Origin: a virus
Reading direction: 5' to 3' (one strand)
Length of the DNA stretch: 51,920 nt
Virus genome (UHGV): UHGV-0124386
Shown here: in pieces, positions 5,120 to 19,281 of the stretch
Numbering within the stretch: position 1 is the first letter of the stretch
Layout of the letters: every line of letters begins with the position of its first letter
The notes under the pieces: generated by a model
Told to the model about the DNA's origin: nothing
Seen by the model: the letters and a program-made list of their open reading frames with translations, nothing else
Databases searched by the model: none
Translations under genes and position numbers: made by a program

Positions 5120-6043
5120 TTATTGACAGCAAACAATCTCTTTATATGTTTCTTCTACCATGTCGAATACTTCCGGCCTGTAATAAAAAAATTCAGTGCT
5201 ACCATCAAACTTAACAGGGAAGTTTATTTTATAGTCACTGAAAGCATCGTGCATTTTGCTTTCTATTTCCTGCATAATCTCAGTAGGCCCATTCCATGTT
5301 TTAACTACCTGTAAATCAGTCAGCCTTACACCTGCCTTACGAGCACTTTTAAATACTCTGTTCCTCCTTTCGTTCTCTTTTACGCTTACACCAATTTTCA
5401 TTTGTGTAGGCACTTCAAGATCATCAACCATGATGTAAAGTTTTCCGTTGTAGTGTGATAAAAACCCGTATTTAGCGCATTTCGGGCAACCGCGCCCGCT
5501 CTTAATGTCTCTAGGTTTAGCCGACCACTCATGATCACAAACCTTGCAGCGGCATAATACTTTTGTACTGTTATTAACTATTTCAACCAGCACTTCAATA
5601 TCAGGATTAACCTTAGCAATAGCCGATATTTGTTCTTCATGCGATATTTTTTTGCCTTGCGCTCGTTTTAGCACCGCACATTTCTGGCAACCGCTCCCGA
5701 TCTTAAGGCTTTTAGGTGTAGAATACCACTCATGATCACAAACCTTGCAGCGGCATAATACTTTTATTTTGTCGCCGGTAATTTCCCCAAGCACTTCAAT
5801 ATCAGGATTAACCTTAGCAATAGCCGATATTTGTTCTTCATGCGATAACTTCATATTCCCAGCGCATTTCTGGCAACCACGTCCATATTTAATATTGCTA
5901 GGTGTAGCCGACCATTCATGGTTACAAACTTTGCAGCGACATAATACTTTTGTACTGTTATTAACAATTTCCCCTAACACTTCAACATCAGGATTAACTT
6001 TCGCGATAGCTGCAACTTGTTCTTCATGTGTTAACTTGCGCAT
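5120..6043 (-). CDS. protein with three tandem zinc-ribbon repeats and a C-terminal T5orf172 (GIY-YIG-like) domain (307 aa)
   Basis: Three ~60-aa repeats HEEQ.AAIAKVNPD.EVLGEI..KVLCRCKVC.HEW..P..K.G.GC.KC; C-terminal KIGVS...GSTEFF signature resembling T5orf172; strong SD AAGGAG. Confidence 0.6.
   Translation of the reverse strand: MRKLTHEEQVAAIAKVNPDVEVLGEIVNNSTKVLCRCKVCNHEWSATPSNIKYGRGCQKCAGNMKLSHEEQISAIAKVNPDIEVLGEITGDKIKVLCRCKVCDHEWYSTPKSLKIGSGCQKCAVLKRAQGKKISHEEQISAIAKVNPDIEVLVEIVNNSTKVLCRCKVCDHEWSAKPRDIKSGRGCPKCAKYGFLSHYNGKLYIMVDDLEVPTQMKIGVSVKENERRNRVFKSARKAGVRLTDLQVVKTWNGPTEIMQEIESKMHDAFSDYKINFPVKFDGSTEFFYYRPEVFDMVEETYKEIVCCQ
5476..6028. repeat. triplicated ~190-200 bp tandem repeat inside the zinc-ribbon/T5orf172 gene
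   Basis: Antisense ORFs 5544.. and 5745.. both begin MQRHNTF and a third copy follows; protein shows three near-identical modules; coordinates approximate. Confidence 0.7.
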
Positions 6044-13500: not shown

Positions 13501-13693
13501 ACATTACATGGAATGGAAAATTCCAGAAGCAGCAACAAAGGCAGCGCCAGGAAATGTTTCTGGCGTTTATTTTTATATGGATGGCAAATGGTATTTCGGC
13601 AGCAGGCCGGATCGCTACTATCAAGAAATATGCAAGCCTCACGTATGGGATATTAAAGAGCGCGTGAAAGGCGGGGTAATTGAGGACGTTTAA
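13490..13693 (+). CDS. hypothetical protein (67 aa)
   Basis: ORF track. Confidence 0.35.
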   Translation: MKFKHYMEWKIPEAATKAAPGNVSGVYFYMDGKWYFGSRPDRYYQEICKPHVWDIKERVKGGVIEDV

Positions 13694-13922
13694 AATGATG
13701 CGTGCAATTATTGACTTCATTATTGGATGGTTATTTTGTTCTTTTTTCGTATTCTCATGTATAGCTACGGTTTTTATTGGAATTTTATGTGGTGTGTCGT
13801 TTGTTACATGGGAGCTACCAGAAATTCCATCACCTGATGATGCGCTTTATATATTAAGGGTTATTATTGCTGTTAGTGTATTTGTTGGGTTCTTTTTCGC
13901 TGATTCTACTGATGATTTATAA
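13680..13922 (+). CDS. small membrane protein, two predicted TM helices (80 aa)
   Basis: ORF track; two long hydrophobic stretches. Confidence 0.4.
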   Translation: MRTFKMMRAIIDFIIGWLFCSFFVFSCIATVFIGILCGVSFVTWELPEIPSPDDALYILRVIIAVSVFVGFFFADSTDDL

Positions 13923-13923
13923 A

Positions 13924-14157
13924 ATGGCTTTATTTAACCTGTCAGAGCCGCAATTTAACGCCGTAAAGACTGCCGCCCGCGCCGCGCTTTCGGCCTGCAA
14001 AGCGGAAGTAGAAAAGAACGGCTACAGCGATAAAGCCACGCGGCTGATATTAGATAAGCATTATCGCAAGGTCGCCCCGCTAATCAGTATTGAGCGTTTT
14101 GTGTGGTTGGTGGGGTATCTGAATAACCGCTGGGGAACAGATCAGGATTATTTCTAA
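13924..14157 (+). CDS. hypothetical protein (77 aa from ATG 13924)
   Basis: ORF track frame 13867..14157; start chosen to abut upstream stop. Confidence 0.35.
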   Translation: MALFNLSEPQFNAVKTAARAALSACKAEVEKNGYSDKATRLILDKHYRKVAPLISIERFVWLVGYLNNRWGTDQDYF

Positions 14158-14166
14158 GGGGGCGTA

Positions 14167-14706
14167 ATGAAAAATGATTACGGCGGCAGCCATACGCCGA
14201 AAGAAATAAAGGACTTATGGCAAACGCCAAAACCCGTTTTTAGAGGAATGGATCGAGAATTCGAGTTCGTCGCGGATGTGGCGGCAAACAAGGCAAACGC
14301 ATTAATACCGCGATATATAACCGAAGAAATGGACACGCTCCATTATCCGTGGGGAGCGGTGGCGATGCCTGGTGAGTATGTCTGGATGAATCCGCCATAT
14401 TCTAATCCGGGGCCATTCGTTGATAAAGCGGCGCTTGAACACAGCCGAAATCATATCGGATGCGTAATGTTATTGCCCGCTGACATTTCTGTTAGCTGGT
14501 TTATGAACGGCGTGGAGACGGCAAACGAATGCCGATTAATCACGCGCGGGCGGCTGGCGTTTATCAATGCTGCAACAGGGAAACCAGTAAGCGGGAACAA
14601 TAAGGGGAGCTTGTTCCTGATCTGGCATCCACGATGCAGACATGAATGTATTTTCACGCAGATAACACGTAAAGAGCTATATGCAAGAGGTGCAGAAAAT
14701 GAATAA
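14167..14706 (+). CDS. phage-type DNA N6-adenine methyltransferase (Dam-like, 179 aa)
   Basis: Catalytic NPPY motif (WMNPPYS) and upstream WQTP motif characteristic of phage N6A methyltransferases. Confidence 0.8.
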   Translation: MKNDYGGSHTPKEIKDLWQTPKPVFRGMDREFEFVADVAANKANALIPRYITEEMDTLHYPWGAVAMPGEYVWMNPPYSNPGPFVDKAALEHSRNHIGCVMLLPADISVSWFMNGVETANECRLITRGRLAFINAATGKPVSGNNKGSLFLIWHPRCRHECIFTQITRKELYARGAENE

Positions 14707-15019
14707 AGCGGCTGAATTGCTGAGACTTGCGGCTGAAACTATCGAGGCAAGAGGGGAGCAAAACGGATACGATCGAAAAGAAGAAAAATCAGCGCCAAAA
14801 ATAGCGGCTATTTTCAACGCTAAGATGAATGCGAATTTAACCCCACTTGATGTATGGGATCTAATGATTTGCCTCAAGGAAGCGCGTTTAGGGGCTATTC
14901 TCGCTAATGGAACTGATCCGCTCGACACTCTTATAGACCTTATTGCTTATAACGCGCTTAAGGCCGAACAGATATTAGCGTATCGGGAGGAAGAGCTAAA
15001 TGAAGATGGTGGCAATTGA
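14699..15019 (+). CDS. hypothetical protein, possibly all-alpha MazG-like NTP pyrophosphohydrolase (106 aa)
   Basis: ORF track frame 14681..15019; SD AGAGGTG before ATG 14699; E..E...E acidic pattern (ETIEARGEQ) is only weakly suggestive. Confidence 0.3.
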   Translation: MNKAAELLRLAAETIEARGEQNGYDRKEEKSAPKIAAIFNAKMNANLTPLDVWDLMICLKEARLGAILANGTDPLDTLIDLIAYNALKAEQILAYREEELNEDGGN

Positions 15020-15503
15020 CAGGTTATTAGCCTGCGTTTATGTCGCCGTTTTCGTTATCATCAATCTTATTGTTAACCACTGTGGCACGTGGGTAATTCC
15101 GATCACCACGGTAGCCGCCGTGTGTGTCAATATGATGATTCGTGATTTTCTGTTATATGACGGCGGCCTTAAATGGTCGGCTACAACATGCGCCGCCGCT
15201 GGCGCAATCACGGTGCTGATAAATTACGACGCCGGAATGGTGGCGATCGCGTCATTCGTCGCGGTTGTTTCCGGTGCGCTTATTTCTGGCGGCGTTTACC
15301 GGGTTTTACCTGGTGATTTCGATTCTAAACGCTGGCCTGCAAATATAGCGTCCGCCATTGGCGATGCGTTAATTTTCCCAACGCTATCGTTTATGGCATT
15401 CATGCCGGAAATATCAGCTATGCAATTCATCTCAAAAATGGCGGCGGTAACGGTGATCACTATCATCATGCGCCGCTACTTTACGTTCGAGGGTAGGAAA
15501 TGA
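15000..15503 (+). CDS. polytopic membrane protein with weak resemblance to the VUT/YhhQ (DUF165) family (167 aa)
   Basis: 4-5 hydrophobic segments; local pattern similarity to recalled E. coli YhhQ (N.LV...G.TW...D..R; A..S..G..D.L.F); not verified by search. Confidence 0.4.
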   Translation: MKMVAIDRLLACVYVAVFVIINLIVNHCGTWVIPITTVAAVCVNMMIRDFLLYDGGLKWSATTCAAAGAITVLINYDAGMVAIASFVAVVSGALISGGVYRVLPGDFDSKRWPANIASAIGDALIFPTLSFMAFMPEISAMQFISKMAAVTVITIIMRRYFTFEGRK

Positions 15504-16264
15504 GTGGGCTTAGAAATTGGGTGGTGTGGTCGCTGTACGACGGCAGCGGATACGCCGTTAAAGATTGGGCCGACGCTGGTTATAAATGCTATTGCTTCAA
15601 CTATGATGGCGCTAATCACGGCGATTATGAAGGCGTCAAAATCATTCATCCGAACATTGAGTATATCAACGTATGGATTGACAGCCATTTCCTGGTAATG
15701 TTCTCCCCTGAATTGTCTGTTTATCCAGATCCTGACATTATCCTGGGCTTTCCTCCGTGCGACGATCTTGCGGTGTCCGGCGCTCGCTGGTTTGCTGATA
15801 AGCGGAAAAAAGATCCTTACTTCCAGCAGAAGGCGGCATACAACGCAAAACTGGTAGAAACGCTTGCTGATATGTACCACGTCCCGTGGATGGTGGAAAA
15901 TCCGGTAGGTGCGCTGTCAACGTTATGGCGCAAACCTGATTTTATCTTCAACCCGTGCGCTTACGGTGGCTACCTGCCTGAAGACGACAAACACCCTGCT
16001 TTCCCTGAATACATAGCTGCCCGCGACGCATACACGAAGAAAACTTGTATCTGGTGCGGGAATGGATTTAAGCAGCCGCTATTCCGGTCTGTACCTATGC
16101 CGGATGAATGGGAAGACAGCAAACAGCACGCGAAGTTAGGAGGAAAGTCGAAACGCACTAAGATGATCCGCTCACTAACGCCGCGCGGCTTTGCCCGTGC
16201 TGTATTCTTGGCTAACGACCGGGCCATCACTCGTACTACGCTTAACCGCATTTTACCGGACTAA
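15500..16264 (+). CDS. DNA C5-cytosine methyltransferase-like protein with non-canonical motifs (254 aa)
   Basis: Motif I-like SLYDGSG, motif IV GFPPCD (PC catalytic Cys, D in place of Q), motif VI ENP, motif IX-like RSLTPRGFARAVF; short variable region. Confidence 0.55.
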   Translation: MSGLRNWVVWSLYDGSGYAVKDWADAGYKCYCFNYDGANHGDYEGVKIIHPNIEYINVWIDSHFLVMFSPELSVYPDPDIILGFPPCDDLAVSGARWFADKRKKDPYFQQKAAYNAKLVETLADMYHVPWMVENPVGALSTLWRKPDFIFNPCAYGGYLPEDDKHPAFPEYIAARDAYTKKTCIWCGNGFKQPLFRSVPMPDEWEDSKQHAKLGGKSKRTKMIRSLTPRGFARAVFLANDRAITRTTLNRILPD

Positions 16265-16423
16265 AGTTTACAAAGTGGCATCATTGTGTGATGCGGATCA
16301 CATAATGGCGCTTTTTGTCTTGTTTGGGGGTATCCATTTTGTATACTTCAAGCAAACAAAATGCTCTTTAAAAATCCGGCAGCGCTGAAATGCGTAGAAA
16401 TCACCTGAAAAGGAGAGAGCATT

Positions 16424-18525: not shown

Positions 18526-18983
18526 TGGATAAACTGGAAATAAACGATCAGTTTGCTGTTATCTTGTTCGAGGATAAAACAGGCGGTGCATGGTGTAAGA
18601 AAGTCACTGGTGCTGAAGCGCGTTTAATATTGGGAATGGCAAGCGCATTAAACGATGGCGAATTGCCCGCCGTACCTATTGAGCCTGTTCATATTTATGG
18701 GCGGGTAACGACAATGAAGCCTAAATTAAAAGAACATCTTTTTGCAAAACTTGTTAATGACCTGACGTTATCAGCGCGGTTGTGTGGTGATACACAACAA
18801 TTACTGGCGTGGATAGCAAGGGATTTGAAAAAATATATTGAGCCTGGCGGGCCTGGTGACGAAATGACGGTTGATAAGGCCATCGAGCGCCGGACGGCTG
18901 AATGGTCAGTAAGTAATACCGGATTAACCGGATACATCGAAGGCTATAACGACTGTTTACAGGATCATAGCGATGGCAAATAA
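18522..18983 (+). CDS. hypothetical protein (153 aa), start overlaps Q stop
   Basis: ORF track. Confidence 0.45.
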   Translation: MMDKLEINDQFAVILFEDKTGGAWCKKVTGAEARLILGMASALNDGELPAVPIEPVHIYGRVTTMKPKLKEHLFAKLVNDLTLSARLCGDTQQLLAWIARDLKKYIEPGGPGDEMTVDKAIERRTAEWSVSNTGLTGYIEGYNDCLQDHSDGK

Positions 18984-19281
18984 ACACTTACATTTGAATT
19001 TAAAAGGTGAATACTTCCACGCCATCCGGGCGGGAAAGAAGGTGGAGGAATACCGACTTTATAATGAATACTGGCGTAAACGCCTGGAGGGGCGGGAATA
19101 TGAACGCCTGATCATTAAGCTGGGGTATCCAGCCAGCCACGAAGCGCACCGGATCATAAACCTGTCTTATTTCGGGTACGAAGTAAAAACTATCACGCAT
19201 CCATTATTCGGCCCTGATCCTGTTAAGGTATTCGCAATTAAATGTGATGTGAATTGGATGTTAAGGTGGGGGGAGCAATGA
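18973..19281 (+). CDS. hypothetical protein, possibly ASCH/PUA-like (DUF3850-like) (102 aa)
   Basis: N-terminal pattern HLHLNLKGEYFHAIRAGKKVEEYRLYNEYW resembles DUF3850 proteins. Confidence 0.4.
   Translation: MANKHLHLNLKGEYFHAIRAGKKVEEYRLYNEYWRKRLEGREYERLIIKLGYPASHEAHRIINLSYFGYEVKTITHPLFGPDPVKVFAIKCDVNWMLRWGEQ

Follow-up and report, generated by a model that had tools for sequence, protein, structure and literature searches.

Four overlapping genes at positions 14,167-16,264 of the virus genome UHGV-0124386, a stretch of 51,920 nucleotides referred to here as the window, are predicted to encode a phage Dam-family N6-adenine methyltransferase (gene 1), a DUF6378 protein (gene 2), a short and divergent membrane protein of the VUT/QPTR family (gene 3) and a short Dcm-like C5-cytosine methyltransferase (gene 4). 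Sequence comparisons suggest that these genes are co-transcribed neighbours and not the parts of one pathway, namely two independent methylases and an unlinked transporter of the queuosine-precursor type, a reading to which we give a probability of about 60%.

The four genes would form a conserved accessory set within the early operon of a temperate mEp021-like coliphage, present here as a prophage; terminator-like hairpins bracket the set, which would be read together with an upstream ipe homologue. The two methylases would act independently as orphan enzymes using S-adenosylmethionine (SAM), with no imported substrate needed, and would methylate phage DNA as it replicates, with GATC and a CCWGG-like site as the probable targets, allowing progeny to avoid restriction in new hosts. 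The transporter would most likely import a queuosine precursor of the 7-deazaguanine type (preQ0, preQ1 or queuine), because every characterised member of its family carries such a base and its nearest relatives adjoin genes resembling the transglycosylase gene dpdA. Because no DpdA is found in this phage group, the imported base would enter only the host Tgt/queuosine-tRNA pathway, or the transporter would have drifted to a related substrate. A queuosine precursor usable only by host tRNA is the most likely cargo by analogy with these relatives.

Gene 3 as a divergent VUT/QPTR membrane protein

The gene 3 protein matches phrog_4899 (E = 8.6e-46), and its relationship to the VUT/QPTR family (YhhQ, COG1738) is visible only through a family profile. 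The single protein gives E = 0.34 and 11.7 bits against Vut_1 (PF02592; gathering cut-off 27.2), aligning residues 13-157 with positions 6-149 of the 152 in the profile. Word-indexed searching returned only 12 close relatives, and an exhaustive profile search with the gene 3 family returned 256. Vut_1 is matched by 59 of the 61 relatives that were aligned (best E = 1.9e-16), and hhalign pairs this 61-relative alignment with Escherichia coli YhhQ (strain MG1655) at a probability of 92% (E = 6.5e-7, 137 columns). A narrower profile, built from mEp021-group proteins only, does not reach YhhQ (E = 0.1), and the VUT family profile matched nothing among PDB sequences. The AlphaFold2 model of gene 3 is all-helical (predicted local distance difference test score 93.9) with five long helices, one of them of 45 residues, and the mEp021 record gives six transmembrane helices for the counterpart. 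A fold search of BFVD with this model gave its top two VUT-like matches at probability 1.00 with weak E-values, one of them annotated as a 'putative vitamin uptake transporter'. The profile evidence thus bears out the VUT/YhhQ resemblance proposed in the initial annotation of this DNA, and gene 3 is classed here as a predicted, very divergent member of the family.

QPTR proteins transport preQ0 and preQ1 in E. coli and, in the case of a Chlamydia protein, queuine (PMC11130926); phage-encoded yhhQ copies are already known, including that of phage CAjan (PMC6884629, PMC7544227). Gene 3 and the E. coli preQ0/preQ1 importer YhhQ (COG1738, PF02592) belong to the same family at the profile level, and both are polytopic helical membrane proteins. 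However, gene 3 is shorter (167 versus 221 residues), lacks the loop insertions, falls below the Pfam threshold when scored alone, has lost several polar positions and has no deazaguanine genes as neighbours. The wider short-VUT family has 37 positions with conservation of 75% or more; gene 3 keeps 19 of these, with G29, R48, D49, D122, F131 and K146 among them, and replaces 18, including H52, D96, N112, S114, S123, G149 and G150. Loss of conserved residues was considered as a marker of DpdA absence and set aside, as a DpdA-linked protein of the Drexlerviridae type (P0256) shares several of the losses.

Selection on the four genes was measured by pairwise Nei-Gojobori estimates of the ratio of nonsynonymous to synonymous substitution rates (dN/dS) between the window, mEp021 and MagusPhagus. 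Purifying selection acts on each of the four genes: the ratio is 0.025-0.058 for the transporter, the lowest of the four, 0.05-0.09 for Dam, 0.05-0.12 for the C5 methylase and 0.11-0.21 for the DUF6378 gene. The gene 3 proteins are 97-99% identical where DNA identity is only 91-94%. Given this low dN/dS and a gene order that is kept in a distant relative, the orphan transporter gene is maintained by selection, that is, it is 'alive'.

Short VUT genes and DpdA in other phages

Short VUT genes are rare, being detected by tblastn in only 24 phage records, seven of which are mEp021-like. Outside three lineages without DpdA, the short VUT adjoins a DpdA-like gene in all eight of the other readable contexts sampled, which comprise phages LHE71, Opt-719, RCIP0319 and Tbat1_6 (Drexlerviridae), PEAT2 (Pectobacterium) and AB3P2 (Acinetobacter) and two metagenome contigs. 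In the six phages, the neighbour of the VUT gene is phrog_887, a DpdA-like 'queuine tRNA-ribosyltransferase' (E = 1e-62 to 3e-86), and the same six phages hold the nearest phage relatives of gene 3, with VUTs of ~155-160 residues at 27-36% identity. The DpdA-like gene lies downstream of the VUT gene in six of the eight contexts and upstream in two (AB3P2 and locus L016). The mEp021 group differs from the VUT-DpdA pairs of the Drexlerviridae, PEAT2 and AB3P2 in that a Dcm-like methylase gene occupies the downstream slot. The ~247-residue gene downstream of the Drexlerviridae VUT was itself considered as a candidate short methylase; BLASTP showed otherwise, and PHROGs assigned it as DpdA-like.

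In these pairs (L009 3486-4789, L004 3989-5292, L010 3489-4789, L011 3489-4747, L005 5004-6229, L012 2782-3974, L015 and L016), the phrog_887 partner of the VUT is ~245-275 residues long, no preQ0 synthesis genes lie nearby and both proteins are annotated as hypothetical in most records. The pair resembles a compact deazaguanine module for 'import and insert'. In LHE71 (Tunavirus), the short Dcm-like gene lies ~2 kb from the VUT-DpdA pair on the minus strand (L009 657-1390) and appears split into overlapping open reading frames (ORFs; 657-1097 and 968-1390), suggesting a frameshift or a sequencing error.

All viruses with known 7-deazaguanine DNA encode DpdA, which is deemed the signature of such modification (PMC10516641). 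A profile built on five phage DpdA-like proteins and run with hmmsearch --max over window ORFs from all six frames found no DpdA/TGT (best E = 0.87), confirming an absence already remarked on in the initial annotation. The same profile recovers DpdA in the eight other phage loci (E = 3e-43 to 2e-134) and had no match in the whole of mEp021, in the MagusPhagus region or in L003, a 52%-identical metagenomic relative. Pfam scans of 24 window ORFs detected no further Dpd-system gene, and the complete mEp021 record annotates none. Some phages are known to encode YhhQ homologues that are uncorrelated with their modification group, and phages without DpdA may boost host queuosine precursors (PMC6884629). 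Two further lineages carry a short VUT without a nearby DpdA, P0253 and P0258, the latter beside a DNA ligase. Within the P0253 lineage, a 43%-identical VUT is found in a different temperate metagenome phage (L006 6001-8258, and L008), with a PF01555 methylase downstream and two phrog_2510 proteins between them.

Gene 4 and the short Dcm-like methylase family

Gene 4 has no Pfam match of its own but matches phrog_757 ('DNA methyltransferase') with E = 1.1e-86. A word-indexed search returned more than 2,372 homologues, and the PHROG 757 family was located by tblastn in 1,539 phage records, nearly all of them without the transporter. Carriers include T1-like Drexlerviridae, Dhillonvirus, rV5-like and other large myoviruses, and phages of Klebsiella, Salmonella and Vibrio. 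PF00145 gave no match to the gene 4 protein at E <=1 and weakly matches 12 of 29 homologues (best E = 1.3e-6). A C5-methylase fold was found for gene 4. Searched against PDB sequences, its profile gives weak matches to DNMT3B and HaeIII in the N-terminal half only, with motif I and PC aligned and the latter placed on the PCN of DNMT3B. A PDB search with the single sequence gave only a chance potassium-channel match.

The initial annotation had called attention to atypical C5-methylase motifs in this protein. The motifs themselves are as described, with P86-C87 in FPPCDD, E133-N134-P135, and W143-R144-K145-P146 where QxRxR is absent, but they are no peculiarity of gene 4, since all are family consensus. 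Across 29 diverse members, little or no variation is seen in FPPC(T/D), ENP, WRKP, IRSLTPRGF and a C-terminal AN, and PC and ENP are invariant. The canonical motif VIII QxRxR and motif X GN were not found in the family, which has WRKP (R144 invariant) and the terminal AN (N239 invariant) in what may be the equivalent positions of M.HhaI.

A short enzyme of this kind has been characterised in phage K42 (KarlJaspers strain), whose 711-bp dcm is the trigger of retron Ec86 (bioRxiv 10.1101/2023.08.16.553469). By liquid chromatography-mass spectrometry, K42 Dcm makes 5-methylcytosine (5mC) at CCWGG, and the CCWGG site in the multicopy single-stranded DNA of the retron is required; the enzyme was modelled on DNMT3A, and its C82A/E128A/K175A/K176A mutant is inactive (bioRxiv 10.1101/2023.08.16.553469). 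Hanrivervirus vojen_76 (234 residues) was compared in place of K42 Dcm, KarlJaspers being a Hanrivervirus like vojen. C82, E128, K175 and K176 are all present in vojen_76, which is 61% identical to gene 4 and whose four residues share columns with C87, E133, K180 and K181 of gene 4; the spacings of the catalytic residues are constant across the PHROG 757 family. Gene 4 and the Hanrivervirus Dcm therefore share a short family (~230-255 residues), a DNMT3-like fold, and the Cys, the Glu of ENP and the KK pair at identical spacing. They differ in a 5-residue N-terminal and a ~15-residue C-terminal extension in gene 4, and in source, the Hanrivervirus enzyme coming from a virulent T1-like phage and gene 4 from a temperate mEp021-type phage. 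Because its motifs are family consensus and its catalytic residues match those of the validated Hanrivervirus enzyme, gene 4 can be placed by sequence as an unexceptional representative of the short phage Dcm-like methylases, a known and validated family.

Methylase-fold enzymes can also use carboxy-SAM, as exemplified by CmoX (PDB 8yf3; PMC12783734), a phage DNA cytosine C5-carboxymethyltransferase. CmoX has Arg in place of Asn304 of M.HhaI and is encoded beside CmoA and CmoY, whereas the gene 4 family keeps an invariant Asn239 at a possibly equivalent position, and the scanned window ORFs yielded neither CmoA nor CmoY, nor a further tailoring enzyme.

Genes 1 and 2

Gene 1 scores above curated thresholds over its full length, with 174.5 bits against PF05869 (E = 1.9e-51; cut-off 28.1; residues 7-176 of 179) and 140.9 bits against the equivalog model TIGR01712 (E = 2.7e-41; cut-off 97.05), and it also matches phrog_111 (E = 5.8e-64). 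Its NPPY motif occupies residues 75-78 (nucleotides 14389-14400). The phage N6-adenine methyltransferase with NPPY that had been proposed at first reading is thereby upheld, and gene 1 is assigned by these models to the phage orphan Dam-family N6-adenine DNA methyltransferases. GATC occurs at 240 sites in the whole window and CCWGG at 115, compared with 173 +/- 10 and 56 +/- 8 expected from dinucleotide shuffles, and both are over-represented. Neither putative methylase target is avoided, and the site counts are uninformative beyond being host-like.

Gene 2 matches PF19905 (DUF6378) with 37.3 bits (gathering cut-off 27.1) over positions 2-79 of the 81 in the profile, and all 11 aligned homologues match the same family. 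Alignment with relatives suggests that the true start is probably ATG 14699, giving a protein of 106 residues. A weak MazG-like acidic pattern had been suggested for this protein and could not be substantiated at any threshold: Pfam scans (at E <=1 for the protein and E <=10 for the 11 homologues) return DUF6378 only, and the DUF6378 profile gave a single chance match among PDB sequences (ribosomal S16). The window protein lacks a variable C-terminal tail of ~60 residues that is present in the homologues of mEp021 (L001 4700-5197) and MagusPhagus (L002 3701-4213); E. coli prophages carry both long and short forms. DUF6378 homologues are found in 226 phage records, mainly of Dhillonvirus with some N4-like and 9NA-like phages, and in a Faecalibacterium phage the gene lies inside a nucleotide-metabolism block with Dam, a 225-residue cytosine methylase and ThyX. 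The role of DUF6378 is possibly nucleotide-related.

Phage group and operon setting

The cluster region is 85-90% identical in nucleotide sequence, with the same gene order, to seven temperate coliphages (mEp021, MagusPhagus, mEp010, mEp013, mEp044, mEp515 and mEp554), and 100% identical to a region of the E. coli N25 chromosome. By these matches, the window is identified as most of an mEp021-like ('mEpimmI' group) E. coli prophage. The cluster was found in 35 of 5,426 complete E. coli genomes (~0.6%), and the four-gene order recurs in the metagenomic relative L003, where protein identity is down to 51-65%. Beyond the cluster, the window encodes a CI-like repressor, Erf, SSB, DnaB, NinB, NinG, RusA, Q and late genes. 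The mEpimmI group has been described, and that paper only annotates these four genes (PMC11893012); it places a nutR2 site just downstream of the mEp021 cytosine methylase gene (PMC11893012).

Four plus-strand ORFs make up the cluster, at 14167-14706 (179 residues), 14681-15019 (112 residues), 15000-15503 (167 residues) and 15500-16264 (254 residues). Every junction overlaps, by 8 nt (26 nt with the 14681 start), 20 nt and 4 nt in turn, in agreement with the initial annotation, which had described four consecutive genes with overlapping boundaries. The features of the segment are as follows.

13543-13567, plus strand: terminator-like hairpin upstream of the segment, an 11-bp stem then a T-run; syntenic with mEp021 TERM_3
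13924-14157, plus strand: ipe ('inducer of pleiotropic effects') homologue inside ORF 13867-14157; syntenic with mEp021_29; no Pfam match
14167-14706, plus strand: predicted phage Dam N6-adenine methyltransferase (PF05869, TIGR01712, phrog_111)
14699-15019, plus strand: DUF6378 protein of 106 residues (PF19905); longest ORF from 14681
15000-15503, plus strand: predicted short divergent VUT/QPTR membrane protein of 167 residues with no adjacent DpdA (phrog_4899, family profile, hhalign with YhhQ)
15500-16264, plus strand: predicted short Dcm-like C5-cytosine methyltransferase of the PHROG 757 family; Cys87 at nucleotides 15758-15760, Glu133 at 15896-15898
16281-16308, plus strand: terminator-like hairpin closing the segment, a 12-bp stem then CGCTTTTTGT; syntenic with mEp021 TERM_4

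The same genes, in the same order and operon position, are mEp021_30 to mEp021_33 of mEp021 (GenBank MH706966; PMC11893012), where the annotations read, in turn, putative N6-adenine methyltransferase, hypothetical protein, putative membrane protein (six transmembrane helices) and putative DNA cytosine methyltransferase. Unlike the window, mEp021 also encodes a third methylase, mEp021_05 (N4/N6 type, 245 residues; L013 2836-3573), beside ninB in the leftward operon; no counterpart was found in the window by tblastn (best E = 0.38; window about 1512-1921).

Two small genes lie just upstream of the cluster in the same terminator-bounded segment (13680-14157), one encoding an 80-residue predicted membrane protein and the other the ipe homologue, and neither matches Pfam. 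Elsewhere in the window, a 307-residue protein encoded on the minus strand (5120-6043) contains three DUF4379 treble-clef zinc-finger repeats and CapR, with weak T5orf172/MUG113 (GIY-YIG-like) matches. Its mEp021 counterpart is the longer mEp021_12 'zinc-ribbon domain-containing protein', and blastn cross-hits reveal a diverged partial copy in the late region of mEp021. A 102-residue ORF downstream of the Q antiterminator gene (18973-19281) gives an ASCH/PUA-like impression only, with no Pfam match at E <=0.01.

Weighing of alternative explanations

Several observations weigh against treating the four genes as unlinked neighbours with a queuosine-precursor transporter among them. Their tight translational coupling fits a functional linkage, although such coupling is common throughout phage genomes, and the P0253 lineage (loci L006-L008), in which a VUT without DpdA is followed two genes downstream by an N6_N4 DNA methylase, gives a faint hint of an association between VUTs and methylases. 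A phage-encoded importer looks redundant in E. coli, which already possesses a YhhQ and synthesises preQ0 de novo. The below-threshold Vut_1 score and the replacement of 18 of 37 conserved positions mean that the substrate of gene 3 may have changed. Deletion of yhhQ from phage CAjan had no detectable effect on preQ0 modification (PMC7544227).

The linkage could be real if the cluster were an integrated hypermodification or anti-restriction pathway, in which an imported base or cofactor is installed on phage DNA by the flanking C5-methylase-like protein, by DUF6378 or by another non-DpdA enzyme. The coupled genes are conserved together down to the 51-65%-identical L003, the transporter is strongly constrained despite the lack of DpdA, another VUT lineage that lacks DpdA also has a DNA methylase close by, and carboxy-SAM is supplied in E. 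coli through CmoA. We nevertheless regard this pathway as very unlikely. No frame of the window encodes a DpdA or TGT, DpdA is found in every known virus with 7-deazaguanine DNA (PMC10516641), the methylase family is present in ~1,500 phage genomes and the transporter type in 24, and a family member whose catalytic residues are conserved in gene 4 makes plain 5mC. The selectivity of CmoX depends on Arg at the position of M.HhaI Asn304, where the gene 4 family may have its invariant Asn239, and neither CmoA, CmoY nor another tailoring enzyme was seen among the scanned ORFs. The proposal in the initial annotation that an imported base or cofactor feeds hypermodification by the flanking enzymes is thus disfavoured, with no DpdA in the window and a methylase family that is nearly always found without the transporter. 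There is a similarly slight chance that the DpdA-less short VUT has taken on a new role, importing for a non-DpdA modification of DNA or RNA (for example by DUF6378 or early proteins) or for the flanking methylase-fold enzyme, with the cassette as a functional unit.

The pairing of VUT and DpdA in eight other contexts, the Dcm-like gene filling the downstream slot in the mEp021 group and the loss of many otherwise conserved polar residues from gene 3 could instead mark the transporter as a relic of a VUT-DpdA cassette, whose DpdA gene was replaced by a short Dcm gene through illegitimate recombination and which has no useful function left. This scenario is improbable and is contradicted by the selection data, with dN/dS of the transporter the lowest of the four genes. 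The gene is also intact in a relative only 52% identical, it keeps the family-invariant G29, R48, D122, F131 and K146, and several of its residue losses are shared by Drexlerviridae VUTs that do have DpdA as a neighbour. A re-purposed membrane protein, with the VUT fold kept for another small molecule or for a superinfection exclusion or lysis timing device, is unlikely but deserves more weight. It would account for the strong divergence from canonical QPTR proteins (E = 0.34 for the single protein against Vut_1 and E = 0.1 for the narrow profile against YhhQ), for the loss of H52, D96, N112 and S114 and for the redundancy of a preQ0/preQ1 importer in E. coli, and the upstream neighbours gp28 and ipe are small membrane or toxic-effect proteins. 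However, no evidence was found for an alternative activity, the full-length six-helix architecture and the charged R48, D49, D122 and K146 are retained, and DpdA linkage persists in the closest clades that share these residue losses. Independent methylases beside a probable queuosine-precursor transporter remain the preferred reading.

Implications

All components of the cluster fall into families already described, and the GenBank record of mEp021 annotates the cluster; what is new is the pairing of VUT and DpdA in other phages as against the conserved, DpdA-less VUT of the mEp021 group. The oddity of a 'non-canonical' C5 methylase is cleared up, gene 4 being part of a family that ranks among the most common phage methylases and has a biochemically validated member. 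Because that family is a known trigger of retron Ec86, mEp021-type prophages, carried by ~0.6% of complete E. coli genomes, may trigger retron defence, and they may alter host methylation on induction. The substrate of gene 3 would show whether temperate phages manipulate the queuosine-tRNA status of their hosts or whether this branch of the VUT family carries something else.

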